DNA of 20,000 bases, taken from NCBI GenBank assembly GCA_000934665.2, contig KZ538478.1, forward strand, positions 47,414 through 67,413, read 5' to 3'. Within the stretch, counting starts at the first letter, position 1. Each line of letters starts with the position of its first letter. The translations under genes were made by a program, and so were the position numbers. The stretch is from Catajapyx aquilonaris. Its lineage: Eukaryota. The notes under the pieces are model-generated. The model was not told where the DNA came from. It made no database searches and was given only the letters and a program-made list of their open reading frames with translations. Shown here in pieces: positions 251 through 19,405 of this stretch.

Positions 251-554
251 TACACTATACTCCCGATTATCTGGGCTAATGACTGCAAGGGTGTCACCGG
301 ATAATCGAAACATAGTTCTAGATACCGTAAAAGTGAGCTGTTTGGAGGTTTTAAATGAATGAGTGTACATACTATGCACTTCTTTAAATAAGATTGAATC
401 AAAATAATGAAACTTCCCACATGTCTTCTGGAAAAAGTATGTTATATTTCTTTGTTTTCAAGACATATCGGCATTTGTTAGGACATGAATTTATTTTCCT
501 TTGATTTGGCAGTGCACGGATAATCCGCACCCGGATAATGAGGAGTACTGTGTA
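251..554. mobile_element. Tc1/mariner (pogo/Tigger-like) MITE
   Basis: Imperfect TIRs TACACTATACTCCCGATTATC / GATAATGAGGAGTACTGTGTA with TA ends; homologous inverted copy split across 13734-19480. Confidence 0.65.
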
Positions 555-701
555 ATTACAATGGGAGGATGTGATTTTGGAAACATTAATATCATTTATT
601 CCCAATTTTTATTCCCAACCATGAACAATTGGCATCTTGAAAAGCAAATCATATTGTACCATTGCTTGACAAATTATAAAAAATTAGGCCTAGGTCAAGG
701 T

Positions 702-917: not shown

Positions 918-1101
918 TAAGTGGAATTCTAGAACTTGGGGTCTATACTACCCTGTAAAATATTTTAGAAATCTAAAATTAATTTGGTGGCATTTAGCCA
1001 TTAAGAGCATGATTTTTCAAAAAAAAAACATACGGTTCATCCGTGTTGCCTCTGTATAAATGATTCAAATCTGAACTGAGAAGCATGACATTATATTAGC
1101 G

Positions 1102-1510
1102 TATCCAGAAAGTAAGGTCTGGTTATTTATTACAAAAACCACAATGCACTCTCAAAATTTTTATTTGCACATCTGAAATCGACAATTGTCTACTTTTTTT
1201 CCTAATAGTTTCCAAACAAATCGAGACATTTTTCATTGAGTTACAGAAGATTTTGTATGCCTATGTCATAGAGGTCAGCCAGCCATTTTTGTGATCCCTG
1301 AATGCTGGATTGCAATCCAGAAAATGGCTGGCGGCTGACCTCTATGACGTAGGCATACAAAATCTGGTGTACCTCAATGAAAAATGCCTCGATTTGTTTC
1401 TAAACTATTTTGATAAAAAGAAGACAGTTGTCGATTTCAGATGTCTAAATAAAATTTTGGGGGTGCATTGTGGTTTTTCTAATAAATAAATGGACCATAC
1501 TTTCCAGATA
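1102..1510. mobile_element. Mariner-derived foldback MITE (~190-bp inverted arms, ~30-nt loop) in the putative Adar 3' UTR
   Basis: Arms 1102-1290 and 1321-1510 are reverse complements; right arm translates as KWLAADLYDVGIQNLVYLNEKCLDLFLNYFDK, like a mariner transposase C-terminus. Confidence 0.85.
1126..1165 (-). terminator. Candidate distal poly(A) signals AATAAA (1165-1160 and 1131-1126)
   Basis: Two TTTATT hexamers on the + strand inside the distal hairpin arm; motif only. Confidence 0.35.
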
Positions 1511-1543
1511 TTTTGTATAATATCATGAGTATTCCATACACAC

Positions 1544-1549
1544 TTTAAT
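1544..1549 (-). terminator. Candidate proximal poly(A) signal ATTAAA
   Basis: TTTAAT on the + strand, about 45 nt after the stop codon; motif only. Confidence 0.3.
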
Positions 1550-1592
1550 TATCCATGAAAAACCGTTTCTGCCACTGGTATAAATGCAGGCT

Positions 1593-1706
1593 TCAATATT
1601 CACTAGGTACATCTTCAAACACAAACTGGTCTTGCTCAATGGGCTTTGTGATCCACGTTCCCAAGCCAGCGTCTTGGAATGCCATATACAGGTGGATTTT
1701 GGCATT
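1593..1706 (-). CDS. Adar: ADAR terminal coding exon NAKIHLYMAFQDAGLGTWITKPIEQDQFVFEDVPSEY*
   Basis: Hand-translated; CCCATTTCAG| acceptor in phase 0; matches ADAR2 AGLGAWVEKPTEQDQF; TGA at 1595-1593. Confidence 0.95.
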   Translation of the reverse strand, partial: NAKIHLYMAFQDAGLGTWITKPIEQDQFVFEDVPSEY

Positions 1707-5455: not shown

Positions 5456-5944
5456 CAGGGTGATTCTCTTGAATGGAAGCCCAAACATTCCTGATTATCT
5501 TTTTAACTATGGTATGGTTCCCGATGAAAATTAACATGTACTTACCTTGTATCATGCCAAACAAGGTCTGACTAAAGAATATACCAAAAGTGGTCCCCTC
5601 CAGCATCCAAGAATTTTTTAATGCGAGTCTGCATATTTCCGAAGACTCCTGCTGATTCCCGGCGGCGATCCCATCCATTCCCACCACCCGCCTGCTTGGC
5701 GAGAGAGCCAAGTAGGCGGAGATGAGTGCAATCCTCGCCGGGAATCAGCAGGAGTCTTCGGCAATGTGCAGACTCGCATTAAAAAATTCTTGGATGCTGG
5801 AGGGGACCACTTTTGGTATATTCATTAGTCAGACCTTGTTTGGCATGATACAAGGTACGTACATGTTAATTTTCATCGGGAACCATACCATATTTAAAAA
5901 GTTATTGAGGAATGTTTGGGTTTCCATTCGAGAGAATCACCCTG
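5456..5944. mobile_element. Palindromic Tc1/mariner-superfamily foldback MITE, copy A (CAGGGTGATTCTC termini, ~210-bp arms)
   Basis: Near-perfect inverted arms; TA on the left; further copies at 16803-17307 and 17356-17848. Confidence 0.9.
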
Positions 5945-7923: not shown

Positions 7924-8111
7924 CTGGTAATCTAGTGATGCAGCCTTTGCATCGTGGTAATTCAAAGGGCAGGACTTCATCTCAGTGATAGTACTCAATT
8001 TGCCAGTTGCCTCCAGAAAGCACTGGAAAAGTGCCATTTTTGACAGGCGAGACATCCTCCCTGACTCAAGTTTGCCAGTAACAGAATTGACCATCTCAGG
8101 GCAATCACGTC
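7924..8111 (-). CDS. Adar: ADAR exon GRDCPEMVNSVTGKLESGRMSRLSKMALF...NYHDAKAASLDYQ
   Basis: Hand-translated; TTCAAG| acceptor preceded by GACTAAC branch point; CAG|GTAAGG donor; matches ADAR2 TGK..GR.SRL.K and YHESK..YQ. Confidence 0.93.
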
Positions 8112-8185
8112 CTTGAATTGTAGAGAGAAGTGTAAGTTAGTCACAGCCAGAAATCCTCCAATTGATAACAAAACATATCTCTTGC
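8112..8185 (-). other. 74-nt GC-AG intron of Adar
   Basis: AAAG|GCAAGA donor, GACTAAC branch point, pyrimidine tract and CAAG| acceptor; this junction restores the frame and homology (NWNK-G-RDCPEMVN). Confidence 0.85.
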
Positions 8186-8337
8186 CTTTGTTCCAGTTAA
8201 GACTTATCTTCGGTGCTTTTTTTCCTGGTTGGCGTGTTTCAATTGAACTGCACTGACCCATCAAGGGCATATTCACAACATAAGATGGTGTTATCAGGCC
8301 CGGAACTGCGGGGAAGGGAATCCGTCCACAAACTGCC
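8186..8337 (-). CDS. Adar: ADAR exon (R)AVCGRI...ETRQPGKKAPKISLNWNK(G)
   Basis: CTCTCAG| acceptor; ends at non-canonical AG|GCAAGA donor; matches ADAR2 RQPGKAPNFSVNW. Confidence 0.88.
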
Positions 8338-8752
8338 CTGAGAGTGGTGAGATACATTCCATTTTAACGTATGCCATGGTTTATAATGCTATATCATATC
8401 ATAATACTAATATGTCACTTCTTGGAGGGGGTGAGGGTGGAGGAAGACAATGACGACTATGAAAACATTGTGATCATTACATCAGCAACAAGGTCTAACC
8501 TAGGCTTCATCATTAAACAGCAGTATTAACCCTATGGCCACTAGCTCATTTTGACTGGGTTTTCTGTTTTCCCACCCAACATGAGGATAACCCATGAAAA
8601 TGCCTTTCCACATGAGAAATTCCTCTATCCAATTAGGGGATGGAATGAAGGACACCTCAGACCAATGATAACCACCAGACCACTATCAGGCTTCATATTA
8701 CATCACCTTAAACCACAATAAGGAAACATACTATGTATTCAACAATATTTAC

Positions 8753-8907
8753 CTGTACAAGTGAACCGGATGATACAGACTGCCCAAAACGATGCTTTCC
8801 AAATAGATAGGCTCAATGAAATGAGACAGCAATGCTCCTTGCACTCCCAGCACATTCCAACGAGCAATCTTGTCAGAGCATGACATCGTCAGATTTCGCT
8901 GCTGACC
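8753..8907 (-). CDS. Adar: ADAR exon [51 protein letters not shown](R)
   Basis: Hand-translated; CCTTACAG| acceptor and AG|GTAAAT donor; MSCSDK third Zn ligand. Confidence 0.96.
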
Positions 8908-8952
8908 CTGTAAGGCATGAATAAAAAATTTATTTAATTACATGTGAAATAA

Positions 8953-9647
8953 TAAGGTGACCAGACGTCCCGAATTTTCCGGGACAGTCCCGAATTTTCA
9001 CCCTTTGTCCCGGAATTTTTCAAGGGTCATTCGGGACGCCCATTTGTCCCGAATTCGGCCAAGTTGTCCCGGAAAGGAATGAATAAGTATATTCGTATGG
9101 TGTCACATTTCGAAACTAACCATGTCCCATGCAAAAAAAAATCTTAAGTTAGCAGAATTCCTTTTTTGCTTGCTTGGGACAAATGCTGCCACTGAAAGGG
9201 TATTCTCCCTCATGAATAGTGTGTGGACCAGTGACAAAAGTCAACTGAGTGTGGAAACTCTAAAGGCAATGTTAGTGACTAAGGTCAACTATGATGAAAC
9301 TTGTGTAGAGTTTTTTTTAATGCTTCTGACAAAGAAAGACCTCCTTAAAAAAATTCACAGCTCTGGAAAATACTGTACTACAGCAGTTTGGCTTCTGCTT
9401 CTCAAATGTTGCTAAAGTAAGTACTATATACTTCACATGTAGATGATGATGATGATGGTAAATAAATTGTGAATGTTCTAAGTGACACCTTGCTTTGTCA
9501 GATTGGCTTAGGACATCTGGGCTTGCTTGTAGTACATCTCATTGTCCTAATAAGGAATGTTCATTTTCTTTAAGTGNNNNNNNCCCCCCCCCGGTTTGCG
9601 ACATAATGAGCGTCCCGAATTTCGGGCCCGGAAATCTGGTCACCTTA
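8953..9647 (+). mobile_element. hAT (Blackjack-like) internal-deletion derivative retaining the transposase C-terminal dimerization region
   Basis: TIR TAAGGTGACCAGA, subterminal GTCCCG repeats, flanking GAAATAA duplication; 9122-9415 reads LFCLLGTNAATERVFSLMNSVWTSDKSQLSVETLKAML; contains an N gap. Confidence 0.88.
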
Positions 9648-10121
9648 GAAATAAGGGCTTAGTTTCAGATAAGACTCCACTGCTTCAAAATGATATATTT
9701 TTGCCTCTATTTCAAAAAAGATCAGTAACAATATGGTAATAAAAAATAATAAGTAACAGTATTGGTATGGACAATCTGAAAGGTAATGGGATAGTGGAGG
9801 AGGAGAAGGGGGAAAAGACTGATGGGCAGGTTTATAGTTGTGATTCAAAATTAATTCAGGAGGAAGAGACATTTCACATATCCAGTGATAGTCTCACTTG
9901 AATGGTGTAAATATTGAAATTAAAGCACCACTATGTTGCTAATAAAGTTGTAATGACACAAAATTATTTCCCAAAAATGGGTATCAAATACAATAGAAGG
10001 CAGGGGCAGACGCTGGAGATGAGAGCGTTTATGCATAAAGTTACACACACTGTTGCTGATTTCAACAGATTCCATGAAATAACACAGTAGTAATAATTAT
10101 AGGAGTCCTGCTGCAACTTAC

Positions 10122-10278
10122 CATCATGATTCCATCCCAAGTGCGTATACTGCCCATGTTCATTACAGGAATGGTCCCTTCTCCAGACTCAATTTTTGTT
10201 CTCAACAAGCCCCTGCATTTACGATTAGGATGTTTGTCCACACTGACTCCTGATAATTCTTCATGTGGTGAAAACATC
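10122..10278 (-). CDS. Adar: ADAR exon (R)MFSPHE...[25 protein letters not shown]...TWDGIMM
   Basis: TTTTTAAG| acceptor and |GTAAGT donor; ADAR2-type 5' binding loop and GEG base-flipping loop. Confidence 0.96.
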
Positions 10279-10365
10279 CTTAAAAAGTAATTCATTCCCC
10301 AATTAAAATTCATGTAACATTTACGAAGGTTGAAACCAAGCCTTGGCAAAATGAACCATGCTTAC

Positions 10366-10477
10366 CTCCCATCCCCACAGGGCGCAGTACTGATGTACAA
10401 GTGAAACTTTATGTTGTTTTTTAACATGTATCCGCTTCCACAAGGTCTTGGAACAAAAATGGATGAGCTGAAGGTGT
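10366..10477 (-). CDS. Adar: ADAR exon DTFSSSIFVPRPCGSGYMLKNNIKFHLYISTAPCGDG(R)
   Basis: Hand-translated (absent from ORF track); TTTTTTTTGACAG| acceptor and AG|GTAAGC donor; FHLYISTxPCGD motif with Zn-ligand Cys. Confidence 0.95.
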
Positions 10478-10503
10478 CTGTCAAAAAAAACCAAGTAGAA
10501 ATT

Positions 10504-10526
10504 ATAATGACAATGATAATAATAAT

Positions 10527-10558
<32 letters not shown>

Positions 10559-10575
10559 AAATGATGATGATGATG
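10504..10575. repeat. Compound trinucleotide microsatellite (ATA)n(ACA)n(ATG)n
   Basis: Direct reading. Confidence 0.9.
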
Positions 10576-11385
10576 GTGGACTTTCAGTTATAACAGACTT
10601 GGAAGGCTGGTCCTGGCAAACTTCCATGTCCTGTGTATTTTCACTCCTGATATAACAGACTCATTTCACCTCACCTCGGGTACAACAGATCATTTTTTGG
10701 CTCCTCGTTGGAAAAATATGCTGTTTTTGAGTACTCAGCTTCCTTTCCCTTGTGAGAAAACCACTGTATACTGGAGCTGGGGTGATTTTCCCACCTGTCA
10801 CTGATCTAACACTTGCAGAAGAGGTCAAAATCATACTTTTTCTGGTATATTTGGAAACAAAGCAGAGATAGCATAAGAAAATTGTGGATTTTTTGGTCCT
10901 TTGTAATTCATGGGAGCTAATTTTACACTTTTGTAGATATTTTCGTTAATCAGTATCCTGTAGTGTGCACATTACAGGCATGTGGAAAGCGAAAAACTTT
11001 GCATATTTGCTGAAAACGTGTCAATTTGGTTATAACAGACCTGAAGAAGAAAATGACAAGCACCAGCATGCAAATTGCTATTAATATAACACCCATCCTG
11101 AACTACTGTTAAAGTCATGTAACTCGAGTTATCTGAGTTTCATATAGCATGAAAAAGCCAATCTTCTGATACAAAATAACAATTTGTCCTATGGCCTCTA
11201 ACAAAGAGCTGAACAGCAATGTATCTGAAGATTATATTGCACCTATATTGCAAGTCTAACAGCAAGACTTCACACAGAACATAATCCAGTCCCATAAAAT
11301 TGTGATTTTCTCAACTAACATTATTACTAATGGTTCCCATACAGTTTAATTCACTATGCTTTTCTTACTGCAATATCATACTTAC

Positions 11386-11645
11386 CAGGAGAAGTGAGAA
11401 GTTCTAATTGTTGATAGAGGTAATCCCAGAGGCACCTCCTGGAGATGATTTCCGCATGGCAATCATTTAAGGCACTCCCAGAGCAACTCAGATGGTCACC
11501 ATCAATACACTTTGTTCCAGTTGACACTGTCACAAGAGTGGCATCTTGCATGTCATAATCTCGGGTCATAACTATCCCTGCTAACACTTTTCGACGCAGA
11601 TGATCTGGGTTATCTGATAGGGTTTGGAAGTGGCTGTTGACCAAG
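11386..11645 (-). CDS. Adar: ADAR deaminase domain exon with RRKVLAGIVMT, STGTKC and the NDCHAEIISRR catalytic motif
   Basis: TTTTTTTCAG| acceptor and |GTAAGT donor; HAE Zn-ligand/catalytic Glu motif. Confidence 0.97.
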
Positions 11646-11990
11646 CTGAAAAAAATAATAAGTCTGTTAGGAACATGCTCTTGCAATACTGATCAGAAAG
11701 AATGGCAGGCAATTTTACAAAATTAATATAGTGGGCCATGATACAGCAAATGCATGTGGCCAATATGCTGCAATGTGGTAGCAACAAATAAAGGTATCAG
11801 TTTCTGATACCTTTGCTTGTTTGTTGCACTAGGGGGCCATTAATACTGTGGGAATTCACTTGAACTGATTGCTGGCCCACACAGTCCAAAATGTGCAGGC
11901 AAAAGTCAACCAAAATAAACAAATATTATAGCATTAATAGATTAAAGTTTCATACAATTTACAACTGATTTATCATATGAATGCTTTCAC

Positions 11991-12156
11991 CTTGCAACTC
12001 GATCTGCCAAGCTTTGTGGCATAACCAGCTCCTTTGGCAAGCTTTCTTCAAATTCAAATCCATTGATTGCATGTTCACCCTGAGTGAAATTCAAATTATG
12101 CAATTTAGACAATGCTGCTTTCGCTACAGCTAACTTGGCTAATTTTTTGCTTGGAC
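11991..12156 (-). CDS. Adar: ADAR exon: dsRBD helix 2 (GPSKKLAKLAVAKAALSKLH) and linker to PQSLADRVA
   Basis: TTAG| acceptor and AG|GTGAAA donor; phase 1 to 2; matches ADAR2 KKLAK and PQVLADAV motifs. Confidence 0.93.
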
Positions 12157-12246
12157 CTAATGGATGAAATGGAAAAAACAAAAGCAGAATTAAAAAGCTT
12201 AGAGCATAAAATGGGCACTACCTTAATACATTTTTTATAGACTTAC

Positions 12247-12519
12247 CAGTTCCTTCAAATGTTTCCTCTTCAACAGTTACTTGAACTGTGAATGTCCTCT
12301 GATGAGGATCTCCTCTTTCAGTGATTTCATGCTTAAGGTCTGGGTAATATGCATTCAACAATATGACAGGGTGCTTGTCTAGACACTTAAACTCCTGTGG
12401 AGGACTAGGAATCACAGGAATCCCACCAAGCTGTGAACTGCTCTGGGAAAACTCCATGCCATGTAATCCAGCTAGCACATCTTTAGCCAGTTCCAGTTTA
12501 GCCCGTTTCTTGTTCTGAC
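12247..12519 (-). CDS. Adar: ADAR2-like exon: end of a dsRBD (GQNKKRAKLELAK), linker, and most of the next dsRBD (HPVILLN...GDPHQRTFTVQVTVEEETFEGTG)
   Basis: Acceptor TTTTTTTAAAAG| at 12520 and donor |GTAAGT at 12246; phase 1 to 1; dsRBD motifs KKxAK and GxxH. Confidence 0.93.
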
Positions 12520-12679
12520 CTTTTAAAAAAATCACTAGCTGAGGAAAAGAACTTTAAAAAGCTTCAGCAATGCTGAAAGAGACACTATGCATTGTAATGA
12601 GCACATCAGCCTCTCTACTTGATGGCACAAATAACATTCAAAATAAATTCCCCATATAAAGGGAAAGTAAATCACGTTC

Positions 12680-13330
12680 CACTAGGTAGTCCCCCCCAAA
12701 GAATCGGCCATATTTTTCTTACCACTCTACCTAGAAAAGTCATGTTTGGTTTAAAAGTTACCTTAGTTCATGGGAATGCTACATCATTCACAATAAATGC
12801 TGTGATTGACCTTCAATGTCCTCCATACGCTCTCGACCGTGACTCGACTCGATGCTCTTTATTATCAAAGATCCTCCACACCATATCCTCATAAATAGTC
12901 CAGATTGCTGCACCTATGTTGCTTTCCAAGTCTTCTAACCTCGAGGCTTATTGCGGCTTCTTGTGACAAAATCATGGTGACTTTTTCGGTCATGCTAGCA
13001 GCCTGTGCTTCACTTTTTCGATTTTTTTCTTCCTCTGAAGGAGGTCATCTGCCCTTGTATTGGTCCAAAACACTTGGTGCAACAATCCTGACTATTAATG
13101 TCGATATGCTGCAGAGGGCCTTGGATAATAAGGAGCGTCGTGTCAAGTCGCGTTCGAGTGCATATGCTGGAGGTTGTTTAAGGTCAATCCCAGCATTTCC
13201 TTTGAATGGTTCTACATTCCCATGAACTAATAATAAGGTAAGTTTTAAACCTAACATCATATTTACAGGTAGAGTAGGAAGAAAAATATAGTTGATTCTT
13301 TGAGGGGGACTACCTAGTGAAACACCCTGT
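12680..13330. mobile_element. Older foldback element with ~250-bp diverged inverted arms
   Basis: CACTAGGTAGTCCCCC.AAAGAATC... at left and its reverse complement at right; right end reads TACAGGGTGTTTC on the minus strand; arm translates INVDMLQRALDNKERRVK..GG.L like a transposase C-terminus. Confidence 0.75.
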
Positions 13331-14190
13331 AAAAGGGTTCTGATTGGTCCGCTGCATATTGTTGTTACCGCAATGCTTCCTATTGGCCCTCATTCCACAC
13401 ATGTGCAATGGGGTGGAGGCAGAACCTCTGGTGGGTGGGAGGAGAAACTGTCTATTCATTACATGTTGTCCATAGGGTGAACTTCGCTCTCTCCCCACCC
13501 AGTCCTCCACCCACCCAACAACAACCACATCTGTGCCCCACTCCGCACCCCTCACAGCCTACCATCTACACTCTGCCCCCCCATCCCCTCCTGCTCCACC
13601 CACCCATCCCTGTATTGTTGGCCAGATGGCACTACTGTCAGGTTGTTGACAGTCAGTAAATTGTTCTTGGAACGTCAGTTGGTCAGGACGCATTCTGATA
13701 ACCGGGCTGTTCGAAGGCCAAAGCGATTAACAATACACTGTACTCCCAATTATCTGGTGCAGATTCTCTGGGCATCGCCATAAATAAAACTGAAAATAAA
13801 AGTCGGAAAAAATGTCAATATGTTTCGCAAATGAAGAAATATGACAAACTATTTCCAAAAGACAAACTAAAAATCAATGGTAAGTTTCCTTAAATCTTAT
13901 TTAAAGCATCTTGATACACTGTGTACAGTAGTACTTGCCGAACACCAATGAAGTTCGCCTAGCACGAAAATCACCTGCATGTCGATGTTACAAATACGAA
14001 TTACATGAGAATGAATCATGTTTTAATCACACAACTTATATGCTAATGAGCCACATGGAAGAGTAATGTTGGGGCCAGATATCAATCCGTTTGTCAGTGG
14101 AACAAGACGAATAGGACAGTAGGCCTATTTATTTAGCGCACCGGGGGCAATGGAGTTCACCCAGAGCGCTAAACACACCACAAAGTTCGC

Positions 14191-15703
14191 CTAGAAGCAG
14201 GTGACATCGCCATGGGCAGCAATGACGGCCTCCACACAACACGACATGTGTTGAATGAGCTCTGGCACTCGGCTAGAGTGATGGTGTCCCGAACCTCCCG
14301 TAGCTTGGCCCTCAAGGGATGCCTTGGTGCAAGGATGTTTCCTCTGAAGTACCTTCTTCATGATTTTCCAGTCAGTCTCAATCAGATTGAGGTCCAGGCT
14401 GCTCTATGGCCACGTAGAATGTCAATCCCCTTGTCTGCTTCTGCTGTTTTGGCAAGATGCAAATAGTCTTGTTGAAATATTACGTGACCATCCGGATGTA
14501 AGGTTGCTATTGAGACACACACAGCAGATGGCCTCTCAAAATCTCCTGAAACATGGCTGTATCGATGGTGCTACTGATGCCGTGAAAGTTTCCAAGGCCG
14601 ACACTACCCATGCATCCCCACACCATAATGCTGTGTGCATGTTTGATGGTTCTGGTGAGACATTGGGATGGTACGCTTCTTTCTTTGTTTGCAGTACTAG
14701 ATATGGATGTCCGGGGAGGTGTAGATGGCCGAGATGGTAACGTCTCGGCTTGCTGATGTTGAGTGAAAGACCCCAGGTTCGATCCCCGCCTGGGGAACTT
14801 TCCTTTCACCTGCATCAGGAGGGTCTCTGACCTGCACCAAGGAGGTGTCTGGCAACCTAACCTCCTGGGGAACAGCACATGACCCCTTTACCGACCTTGC
14901 ACTTGCACCAATGTTCCCTCCCCAAAAATCCCTATCCCTACCCTACATCCTTGACTCCTTGCACCAGTGAATGAAGTTAATATAGGAAAATGGAGTGAAA
15001 TGGTGGTATTCCACCCCCCTAAAAAGGCTCAGCCTTATCACGGGGTAACGTTAAAAAAAACACACACACACAAACAAAAAAATGGATGTCCCAGTACTGA
15101 CTAATTCATCGCGAAACTTGACTAATTCCACATCTGATGTGCCCAATACTTCCATTCCTTCTCCCAAGCAAGTCTTTTTCCTGGTCCAGCACCATCAAGA
15201 GTGGTATTTTCTTGACCTATTGTCAAGAGAGCAGGTCCTGATTTCATGAATTCCCCATTAGTCTTTGAGAAGTTACGCATAAAAGTTCATCTTCATGGTA
15301 CTGATGCAGAGTCGACAGGTTGTTGTGGGGACCACCTTTTGGGTCACTTCTGACCATTTTGAAATTGATGGTCGCTGCTCCTTTCGCCGATTTTGCGACA
15401 CATTTTCTTCAGCTCTCAGTTTTTCCTTGCTGCTGTTGCCTGGTGACGTCCATGATAAGATTTTTCTGGATGGTACTTGTAGTTTTGTTACTTCATGCGA
15501 TGCCCCTTACCATGGAGCATGGCCCATGCCCTTCTTGTCCAACCACATACGCAGACTTTCCTTCTTCAGAGCTCTTCCATATCACCTTGCATACCTCTGG
15601 GGGAATGGGCTTACCACCTCCCATGATTGTTATTTTCAGACACAGAGTGCAATGAGTAATGGCATTGTGGTGCAGGGCAAGACACCTGCACTTTTTTTCC
15701 CAT
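14191..15703 (-). pseudogene. Degenerate Tc1 transposase
   Basis: Motifs SIMVWGCM, VIFQQD, (S)LDLNLIE..W and VEAVIAAHG lie in different frames; interrupted by a SINE. Confidence 0.85.
14713..15081 (+). mobile_element. tRNA-derived SINE (S2) inside the Tc1 transposase
   Basis: A box TGGCCGAGATGG, B box GGTTCGATCCC, A/CA-rich tail, TSD ATGGATGTCC (14703-14712 and 15082-15091). Confidence 0.85.
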
Positions 15704-16027
15704 CTGGCACAACCGCATCAGTCTGTATTTAACAGTGGACGAACTTTGTGGTGCGTTTAGCACTCTGGGCGAACTTCATTGCCCCCGGCATGCTTAATAA
15801 ATACTGTCCTATTCATCTTGTTCCACTGACAAATGCATTGATATCTGGCCCCAACATTGCTCTTCCATGTGGCTCATTAGCATATAAGTTGTGTGATTAA
15901 AACATGATTCATTCTCAAGCAATCCGTATTTGCAACATCGATATGCAGGTGATTTTCGTGCTAGGCGAACTTCATTGGTGTTGGGCAAGTACATTAAGAA
16001 CCTGTGAAAAGCTCATTTTTACAGTGT

Positions 16028-16328: not shown

Positions 16329-16802
16329 TCATTTTTACAGTGTCCAGGACCTCAAAAAAATGCCCCAATAAAATATAACTGGATCAAGCAACAAGATAAA
16401 CTGCTCAATGCCTATGGGCAATCAATTAGATTTCATGGCAAAAGATGACGAAAACTGGTTACGGAAGTATGCAACATTGACATAAACTATGCTAGATATC
16501 GAAGTAAAAAATTATATTGATTGTCTCAGTAAGTTAACTTCTAACTATATTAAATCGATATTCTACGATAACTAAGTTATAAATACTTCCCTTCTCAATA
16601 TGTTACAGCTCCTGTACCATTAAATCTTAGGAGAATGTTGGCATGCATCAGATTTAATAATTCTAATTGGATACCATTAGGTAACAGAAGTCTCCAAATT
16701 AATCCTGATGAAAATTGTAATCTTTGTAACTATAAGAATGTTAATGACTGGGTCCATATTCTTAGTGAATGCCCAATATTTCTGGGAAGCAGGTTTAAAC
16801 TA

Positions 16803-17307
16803 CAGGGTGATTCTCTCGAATGGAAACCCAAACATTCCTCAATAACTTTTTAACTATGGTATGGTTCCCAATGAAAATTGACATGTACTTACCTTGTATC
16901 ATGCCAAACAAGGTCTGACTAAATAATATACCAAAAGTGGTCCCCTCCAGCATCCAAGAATTTTTAAATGCGAGTCTGCACATTGCCGAAGACTCCTGCT
17001 GATTCCCGGCGGGGATTGCACTCATCCCCGCCGGCCCGCCTACTTGGCTCTCTCGCCAAGCAGGCGGGTGGGCGGTGGGTGGGAATGGATGGGATCGCCA
17101 CCGGGAATCAGCAGGAGTCTTCGGCAATATGCAGACTCGCATTGAAAAATTCTTGGATGCTGGAGGGGACCACTTTTGGTATATTCTTTAGTCAGACCTT
17201 GTTTGGCATGATACAAGGTAAGTACATGTTAATTTTCATCGGGAACCATACCATAGTAAAAAAGATATTGAGGAATGTTTGGGCTTCCATTCAAGAGAAT
17301 CACCCTG
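16803..17307. mobile_element. Palindromic foldback MITE, copy B
   Basis: TA|CAGGGTGATTCTC ... GAGAATCACCCTG|TA; same family as 5456-5944 in opposite orientation. Confidence 0.92.
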
Positions 17308-17355
17308 TATAAAAACACATATCACCATTATAAAGAGACTATCTGGCTAATCCTC

Positions 17356-17848
17356 CTATGGTATGGTTCCCAATGAAAATTGACATGTACTTACCTTGTA
17401 TCATGCCAAACAAGGTCTGACTAAAGAATATACCAAAAGTGGTCCCCTCCAGCTTCCAAATTTTTTTTAATGCAAGTCTGCATATTGCCAAACACTCCTG
17501 CTGATTCCCAGCGGGAATGGCACTCATCCCCGCCGGCCCGCCTACTTGGCGGGCGGGCATCAGTCTGAAGGCAATGGGCCAGTTGCCTTGAGATGCTCTC
17601 TCGCCAAGCAGGCGGGCGGGTGGGAATGGATGGGATCGCCGCCGGGAATCAGCAGGAGTCTTTGGCAATATGCAGACTTGCATTAAAAAATTCTTGGATG
17701 CTGGAGGGGACCACTTTTGGTATATTCTTTAGTCAGACCTTGTTTGGCATGATACAAGGTAAGTACATGTCAATTTTCATCGGGAACCATACCATAGTTA
17801 AAAAGTTATTGAGGAATGATTGGGTTTCCATTCGAGAGAATCACCCTG
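17356..17848. mobile_element. Palindromic foldback MITE, copy C (left-truncated, part of a tandem duplication)
   Basis: Repeats 16854-17307 and is followed by the same 48-bp flank TATAAAAACACATATC...CTAATCCTC. Confidence 0.88.
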
Positions 17849-18029: not shown

Positions 18030-19405
18030 TAATAATCACTCCAAAAACGGCATACAATTACCTGGTGACGGAAACAACATTAAAGCCTTACTCTCTGCTG
18101 TTGACATAGCATTGCTTGCAGACAATAAACTCTATACCTACAAAGACTGCTAACTTCTACTGATGATTATTATCTCAAGGAAAATGGCCTGAACCTTAAT
18201 ATAAATAAAACTGAGGTGATCATCGTTAGAAGAGGTGGCAGGCGTTCCTCTTCCAAAAAATTTACAATAGATGACAAATCTATCGAGATTGTCACATCGT
18301 CATTCACTTATCACAGAGTAAAATTTTCCTCGTCTGGCCTATTTATGAATGCGATGACGGATAGGGTAAGTAATGCGGTGACAATGTTAAACGTCTCCTG
18401 GCCCATGTTAACCCAAGTCCACCTCCCCACACTAACATCCACTTTAAAATATATCGACTCGGCAGTTATAACATCGGCTAATTATTATGCCTCTCCGATC
18501 TGGGGACTAAATGGACTCAAAAACCTAGAAAGGGTACAAATGACAGCTATTAAAAAATTACTTTCGACAGGTAAGCAAACGGCTGGCTACTTATTACGAT
18601 TAGAAACTGGCCGCCCTCCACTTAAAATTAAAGTTATTCTCCACGGAGTTAAATATCTTAAGAGAGTTGTGAATATGGACCCACAGCACAGAGTGATGAA
18701 GTACCTACTTACTCAATCAAACCCCTTAGCTCATTTCAACTGGGCCAAACAATGAGATTCACTTCTGAACGAATACAGCCAGTCAATCACACACTTCACT
18801 ACAAAGGAAGACACCTTCTGGCTTCAAAAATATGAAATCGGATAGGAATAGCGAAAAAGTACAATACTATGATAAACATAGATATTTTCCCGCTTATTAT
18901 ATAGGAAAGCCAATACAGATAAACTTGCGCAGACTACTGGCCTGTCTTCGGCTTGGCTCAAATTGGATACCATTGGGAGAAAAAAGATAAACCCTGGAAA
19001 TGAAAGTTGCACTTTATGCAATATGAATTCTGACGATGAATGGTTCCACACCTTTTTCGAATGTCCGATGTATACCGGGGGCCATCAAAGTCTGTTACAA
19101 GACTTACTGATCCCTCCAAGGGCTGGCTTTTGTCGGTCCTACACCAGCCTTCAGAAAACCAATTAAAACACACGTTTTTCTTCCTCACTTACGTGGCTAA
19201 ATGGCATGGAATCATCCACTTTGAATTCTGACGAAGGTAAACCTGTCCAAACTGTACTTACTCCCCCCACCTCTGGTTAATGTTACAATTTGTTACTATA
19301 GCATGTCTAACAAAAAAGAGTGAATAGTGTATGGAGCGGTGTCCCTTGGCGAAACATTTCGCTGAGGTGAAATAAATTGAATTGAATTGATTGATTGATT
19401 GATTG
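18030..19405 (+). mobile_element. 5'-truncated non-LTR retrotransposon (RTE-X-like), fragment 2
   Basis: Degenerate YADD region (LLSAVDIALLAD), LNLNINKTEV, YASPIWG, LETGRPPL and CTLCN..DDEWFHTFFECPMY; 3' stem-loop GCGAAA-CA-TTTCGC, AATAAA and (TTGA)n tail; clade is tentative. Confidence 0.85.

Follow-up and report, generated by a model that had tools for sequence, protein, structure and literature searches.

The 3′ end of an ADAR2-type gene

The window, a 20,000-nt stretch of Catajapyx aquilonaris contig KZ538478.1 (C855 in our numbering), carries nine exons of an ADAR2-type gene on its minus strand, with the TGA stop at 1595–1593, where the exon end reads ...KPIEQDQFVFEDVPSEY.

1593–1706, minus strand: last coding exon of the ADAR2-type gene, from exon reading and paralog alignment
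12519–12247, 12156–11991, 11645–11386, 10477–10366, 10278–10122, 8907–8753, 8337–8186 and 8111–7924, minus strand: eight internal exons

The eight internal exons (7924–12519) encode two dsRBDs, of which only the end of the first is included, together with the deaminase domain, and the nine exons join into an open frame of 524 residues up to the stop with zero internal stops. A Pfam scan placed PF02137 (A_deamin) in five of the nine exon translations and a weak dsrm match in one; the dsRBD content amounts to one full and one partial domain. The frame holds CHAE, PCGD and SCSDK motifs, which we take to be the catalytic motifs of an ADAR2-type editase, and one exon scored 90.8 bits against human ADAR2 chains compared with 57.7 against the ADAR1 chain. 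Judged by its frame and domain content, the host is an intact ADAR2-type gene, which agrees with the ADAR assignment of an earlier note on this DNA. Its 5′ exons were looked for in the contig, which stops where the window stops, and were not found. Downstream of the gene, no further gene was recognised by eye among frames of at least 90 residues over ~20 kb.

The gene belongs to a small family. Among 16 deaminase candidates in the genome, four were deaminase loci (the window on C855, C396, C3633 and C3271); three of these are ADAR2-type genes (C855, C396, C3633), and none of the 16, typed by eye, is ADAR1-type. The C855 and C396 genes form a derived pair, and C3633 appears to be the conserved ADAR2-type copy. 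Between the window gene and its C396 paralog, residue identity is 80%, dS is 0.29 and dN/dS is 0.37 (0.29 in the deaminase), a ratio that indicates purifying selection on the window gene and makes both copies look functional. The two genes also differ in structure: the C396 paralog (L092:5950–8590) has additional dsRBD exons, one of them tandem-duplicated, and stops six codons earlier, and its last intron spans ~1.1 kb compared with 6.2 kb in the window gene. In both, the deaminase region is interrupted by a short intron of the GC-AG type (window 8185–8112, minus strand), which apparently begins with GT in the C3633 gene. A dsRBD exon near the end of contig C350 (L102) could be part of either the window gene or the C3633 gene.

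A mariner-derived hairpin behind the stop codon

The earlier note had described a foldback with ~190-bp arms about 82 nt past the TGA, containing several perfect helices of 14–17 bp, and both points are borne out. The main stem pairs 1510–1312 with 1305–1102, begins 82 nt past the stop and includes unbroken Watson–Crick runs of 16, 17, 14, 16 and 16 bp. In the fold calculation that the note had suggested, the predicted fold of 1080–1600 on the minus strand reached −258.1 kcal/mol, relative to a shuffle mean of −107.6 (n = 100, z = −23.8), with 0 of 100 shuffles as good; on this prediction, the duplex can form in the gene’s own sense strand. Over 189 aligned columns the arms are 86.2% identical, with 163 Watson–Crick columns and 26 that differ (9 A–C, 3 G–U and 14 other mismatches on the sense strand). 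Host flanks at 1084–1095 and 1516–1527 also pair with each other and add 11 bp to the stem, because the element had entered a short, AT-rich palindromic target with TA at its centre, which is still visible in the paralog.

1096–1515, unstranded: internally deleted palindromic mariner-derived MITE copy, 420 bp, beginning 77 nt past the stop
1094–1095, unstranded: TA target-site duplication on the distal side, with the family end intact next to the TA
1516–1517, unstranded: TA target-site duplication on the gene side; the outer ~6 element bases differ from the family end
1322–1510, minus strand: gene-proximal hairpin arm, departing from the family majority at 15 of 189 columns
1102–1288, minus strand: distal hairpin arm, departing from the family majority at 13 of 189 columns
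1178–1324 (approximate limits), minus strand: decayed remnant of a mariner transposase C-terminus, mirrored in the other arm on the opposite strand

A genome search with 1095–1520 gave 130 matches on 40 contigs, from the 40 scored of 261 candidates. When the ends of 16 other copies were aligned to the window copy, they shared a TA-flanked terminus and their flanks were unrelated. Full-length copies of the family are palindromes of ~750–910 bp, and the window copy, with arms of ~190–220 nt, a length of 420 bp and no intact transposase, is one of several shortened copies whose internal breakpoints differ. Both arms of three other copies (L009, L020 and L030) match the transposase C-terminal part of PF01359 loci (tblastn, both strands, E from 3 × 10−7 to 8 × 10−4). 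The remnant in the window copy, which contains stops, gave E = 3 × 10−4, and longer copies went down to 3 × 10−7; a plus-strand frame at 1295–1489 supports the mirrored remnant. By this homology, the family is a non-autonomous element made of two inverted mariner 3′ ends, and its stable fold follows from that build. The transposon origin claimed in the earlier note is thereby confirmed as a dispersed, TA-flanked, mariner-derived family, with the true limits of the element at 1096–1515. Of 149 transposase loci, 30 were compared for an autonomous partner with matching ends, and none gave a nucleotide match at E < 0.2.

Elements of this build have been described before. In the report on Rhodnius prolixus (PMC4678618), Rpmar17 and Rpmar49 likewise have a 3′ part in place of the 5′ part, very long arms with transposase homology, a TA duplication, a length of ~900 bp and independent secondary deletions around the centre, as in the window family. 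The window copy differs from them in its host, in its altered outer bases and in its deletion to 420 bp. The end of a sister-subfamily copy, L030, equals the Rpmar33 terminal inverted repeat over 23 nt, compared by eye with the sequence printed there in Table 1 (subfamily ‘New’; PMC4678618). Similarly, Drosophila Dromar7, 11, 28 and 36 combine internal deletion with end replacement and have unusually long terminal inverted repeats and strong secondary structure (PMC4161770); in those sublineages, however, the 5′ part replaces the 3′ part, the mirror case of the element here, in which the transposase C-terminus lies in both arms. The element is therefore a further copy of an already described MITE type and as it stands matters little.

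An assembly fold-over as the source of the hairpin was excluded by the arm identity of only about 86%. More broadly, an assembly or amplification artefact has next to no likelihood, given that 26 of 189 arm columns differ, TA duplications flank the element, the family is dispersed and the flanks join in the paralog.

The earlier note had proposed that the choice of poly(A) site switches between a hairpin-free and a hairpin-bearing mRNA, the latter bound or edited by ADAR according to its level, which would give transposon-derived negative feedback. A strong predicted duplex with nine A–C mismatches speaks for this proposal, and, as the note had held, transcription of a long imperfect duplex of this kind would provide ADAR with a good substrate.

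Age and decay of the insertion

The C396 paralog preserves an empty site. It aligns with the window at 1757–1518 and resumes at ~1090–950 with no element between.

950–1093, minus strand: host DNA on the far side of the element, with its homologue in the 3′ flank of the C396 paralog; with 1518–1592 it defines the empty site

At this position the paralog has a short AT-rich palindrome centred on TA that is shorter than the rejoined site of the window, and the alignment thus gives no sign of an excision footprint; the simplest reading would be that the element inserted after the gene duplication. No long inverted repeat was found near the 3′ end of the C396 paralog, and the 3′ flank of the third ADAR2-type gene, C3633, gives no alignment. 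The absence of the element from both other ADAR2-type genes counts against a feedback role.

The element differs from the family majority by 7.4%, inside the range of 14 other copies (5.0–10.8%), and the paralogs have diverged, per lineage, by ~14% at synonymous sites and roughly 8% in introns. Set against each other, these values would place the insertion, in rough terms, between about half and nearly the full age of the duplication. Aligned with the paralog, the flanks are identical at 62 of 69 columns ahead of the element and at 115 of 135 past it, inside the range of six introns (80–95%), and no constraint on the 3′ UTR was seen in this comparison.

We compared arm decay in 15 copies, the window’s and 14 chosen from 30 loci with both arms inside the locus, over 189 columns. 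Relative to the family majority, the window arms carry 13 and 15 changes, of which one is in common, and differ from each other at 26 columns; the arms have thus decayed independently, like those of other copies, and the window’s arm identity of 86.2% ranks 14th of the 15. Maintenance of pairing by selection was not seen in this 15-copy comparison, which again speaks against feedback. This evidence against use is weak, as a rough duplex is enough for editing. The lean of A–C over G–U mismatches was not significant (P = 0.15), and other copies show like skews.

Position of the hairpin relative to gene ends

As controls we used 52 gene ends, from 40 trypsin and 12 P450 matches near the profile end, one per contig; the control stop was the first in-frame stop past the match, and the exons are presumed last exons. 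No control (0 of 52; 95% upper bound 5.6%) had a foldback with arms of at least 150 nt that begins 1,000 nt or less past the stop. With arms of at least 80 nt and a limit of 500 nt, one of the 52 had a foldback, and three large ones begin at 1.4–1.7 kb. In 20 unselected 10-kb stretches we counted five foldbacks with arms of at least 150 nt in 199,975 bases, a similarly low rate, although long contigs with few repeats are over-represented in that sample. From the control density, a large foldback is expected in the first 100 nt past a given stop with a chance of ~0.2%, and from the local density, taken from a 40-kb stretch of this contig, with one of 1.2%; within 500 nt, the corresponding values are 1.2% and 6%. 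A hairpin so close to a stop codon is uncommon, which favours the feedback proposal of the earlier note. With three ADAR genes and over a thousand genome windows surveyed, an event with a chance of one to a few percent should turn up by coincidence occasionally.

The locus is also rich in such structures, a further point against a specific feedback role. Foldbacks with arms longer than 200 nt number six in the 20-kb window, none in 30 kb around the C396 gene and three on the 21.7-kb C3633 contig; the window’s gene copy accumulates MITEs. The five other large window foldbacks lie at 5456–5944, 12676–13323, 13931–15992, 16801–17309 and 17356–17797, and those at 5456, 16801 and 17356 are a single family of 89–97% identity. 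Decayed frames at 18129–19166 are, by appearance, presumably the end of a LINE reverse transcriptase. Downstream of the MITE, a small foldback at 702–917 (36-nt arms, 89% identity) would lie inside a long-UTR isoform that ends at 613/600.

Poly(A) signals around the hairpin

The hexamers that the earlier note had listed at 1549–1544, 1165–1160 and 1131–1126 are present, and three further ones downstream (at 613, 600 and 495) were missing from it.

1544–1549, minus strand: ATTAAA in host DNA, 44 nt past the stop, unpaired (pairing probability at most 0.11), not in the sister paralog
1160–1165, minus strand: AATAAA carried by the element, paired (0.78–0.99); site present in 21 of 28 family arms
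1126–1131, minus strand: element-borne AATAAA, fully paired (1.0); site present in 21 of 28 family arms
595–613, minus strand: tandem AATAAA pair (613–608 and 600–595), the first hexamers past the hairpin and a candidate long-isoform end
490–495, minus strand: third downstream AATAAA, from the hexamer scan

The counts of 21 of 28 refer to the other family arms, with each AATAAA site scored at the same place. At this frequency, either orientation of insertion would supply the signals, so they are poor evidence of design; the distal hexamers are generic element content, which weighs against the feedback proposal. In the predicted fold, the proximal signal is accessible and the distal signals are sequestered in the stem, an arrangement that would suit a switch. 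By the same prediction, the element-borne AATAAA hexamers are likely to be poor poly(A) signals. The note had described the hairpin as bracketed by alternative poly(A) signals. Its proximal side stands, as a host-derived, unpaired ATTAAA; its distal side is not supported as described, since those two AATAAA hexamers are paired and would be brought along by the element whichever way round it inserted. The hexamers at 613, 600 and 495 could take their place as distal signals.

A very short UTR that ends at the element’s edge is plausible: a hexamer lies within 75 nt past the stop in 15 of 52 control gene ends, about twice the ~13% expected by chance (by arithmetic from hexamer counts). We also queried the genome with the last exon and the proximal UTR, since a processed copy could reveal the poly(A) site in use; both candidates (two of two) were the genes themselves, in the window and on C396.

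Possible roles of the hairpin

We think it likely that the hairpin is a passenger, a MITE inserted 77 nt behind the stop, with no selected feedback on ADAR level. The DNA is without sign that the hairpin was kept as a self-regulation switch. A non-autonomous mariner derivative inserted at a TA 77 nt past the stop of a lineage-specific ADAR2 duplicate, probably after the duplication. The mRNA would end mostly at the unpaired host ATTAAA, with cleavage at ~1530–1515, the element’s edge. Polymerase would continue through the hairpin, and read-through RNA would retain the entire hairpin and end at 613/600, because the element’s own AATAAA hexamers would be locked in the stem. Nascent and read-through RNA would then be a bystander substrate for any cellular ADAR, like the window’s five other large foldbacks, and the hairpin RNA, if read through, is probably edited. 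Against this reading, beside the uncommon position, stands that the gene has carried the element for a long time and is intact and under purifying selection.

A further observation counts against the passenger reading. The C396 paralog has no ATTAAA at the corresponding position (a 4-nt indel and one substitution separate the two sequences), and its first hexamer lies more than 500 nt past its own stop; the ancestral 3′ UTR may thus have extended over the place of insertion, in which case the mRNA may include the hairpin. A hairpin in the main mRNA might lower the output of the duplicate without editing, through impaired elongation or dicing, and would then act as a tolerated damper of dosage with no feedback. 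We regard this as unlikely. It draws on the missing hexamer in the common 3′ flank of the paralog, on the very stable predicted fold and on PMC5080714, in which inverted SINEs in 3′ UTRs reduce mRNA even without ADAR1 and ADAR2. The unpaired ATTAAA upstream of the hairpin stands against it, as does PMC3458544, in which a duplex 15–65 nt past the stop of a human reporter had no effect on translation (the window’s begins at 77–82 nt); the data of both reports are mammalian.

In another account, the insertion did harm, and the ATTAAA was gained or retained in this copy because it ends the mRNA before the hairpin, as compensation and not co-option. The ATTAAA occurs only in the element-bearing copy, and cleavage there would fall at the element’s edge. 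Two sequences, however, cannot polarise gain against loss, the C3633 3′ flank is unalignable and the event is single, and we give this account very little credence.

Transposon-derived duplexes in mammalian 3′ UTRs are the closest tested analogs of the hairpin. Inverted Alu and SINE pairs are likewise transposon-derived, long, imperfect and placed behind a stop, and editing is expected if they are transcribed (PMC3458544 and PMC5080714). The structure here is, in contrast, one palindromic DNA-transposon derivative; the mammalian duplexes consist of two retroposons, and the effects described for them are independent of editing and weak near the stop. Specifically, inverted Alu duplexes lower translation without editing, an effect that is gone at 65 nt from the stop (PMC3458544), and inverted SINEs lower mRNA in cells without ADAR1 and ADAR2, Dicer, Staufen1 or PKR (PMC5080714). 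Feedback needs a drop in output that comes from editing or binding, and these mammalian analogs point the opposite way.

Autoregulation of ADARs has precedent (PMC9479739), in loops that work through recoding or through creation of a splice acceptor. As with Drosophila Adar S>G editing and rodent Adarb1 splice-acceptor editing, the window gene is of ADAR2 type and its unit holds or abuts duplexes (PMC9479739 and PMC10486299). The known loops recode or re-splice at a defined site, whereas here we find a TCA codon, and the duplex is a transposon insertion that only one of the three paralogs carries. The codon that corresponds to the fly S>G site (FSPHE motif) is TCA in the window gene, C396 and C3633, all three ADAR2-type genes, and recoding of this codon class to glycine is impossible (PMC10486299). 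Auto-recoding of the Drosophila type is accordingly ruled out, TCA not being an editable AGY serine codon. That the fly loop is unavailable in all three genes counts for the feedback proposal of the earlier note.

In a concrete form of the feedback proposal, editing would open the stem or alter a paired AATAAA, and the choice of 3′ end, or stability, would shift. We consider feedback in this sense very unlikely. To the element’s absence from the sister paralog, the unmaintained pairing, the many foldbacks in the gene and the editing-independent mammalian UTR repression (PMC3458544 and PMC5080714) is added that the two other ADAR2-type genes could edit the hairpin as well, so that the gene’s own product would not be specifically read out. 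The feedback function proposed in the earlier note is not supported by the DNA of this locus.

The idea is worth stating for what it would mean. A self-limiting 3′ end could in principle come from one MITE, with an open proximal signal set against read-through into a 190-bp duplex that hides its own signals, and with ADAR level setting the fate of the transcript; we put little weight on this possibility. If true, it would be a third route of ADAR autoregulation, ready-made from a DNA transposon, beside the exonic and splice-site loops. A search of the literature on ADAR 3′ UTR feedback and MITE editing, judged by listings and with poor coverage of subscription journals, found no transposon-donated ADAR loop. 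Whatever its role, the locus offers a natural pair, two 80%-identical ADAR2 paralogs with and without a 190-bp duplex behind the stop, and this pair could show whether a transposon hairpin beside an editing gene is excluded, tolerated or used.

Three ADAR2-type genes in one genome

The three ADAR2-type genes are possibly a better lead, and of more interest, than the hairpin. Drosophila has a single Adar gene (PMC9479739), and in a literature search judged by listings, with incomplete coverage, we found no paper on duplicated ADAR2 in arthropods.

The remaining loci contain structures of their own. The fourth deaminase locus, on C3271 (L034:1468–3318, minus strand), is an intronless open frame of 617 residues with a full A_deamin domain; by eye, we take it to be ADAT1-like and its head-to-head neighbour to be proteasome beta-subunit-like. 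On C3633, a palindrome at L095:1747–1976 has arms of 113–115 nt with 98–100% identity and no loop, which may point to a fold-over in the assembly or to an event of very recent date. In the 3′ flank of the C3633 gene (L096:1790–2860, minus strand) lies a long-range duplex that begins ~75 nt past the stop, with arms ~935 nt apart, a core run of ~18 bp plus G–U pairs and a predicted energy of −81.6 kcal/mol; one genome search showed a single copy of this region. Its score was reached by 0 of 60 shuffles and, in contrast, by 14 of 140 unselected genomic windows. With no recognisable repeat in it, this predicted duplex is, compared with the MITE, the better candidate for a self-editing structure native to the gene.
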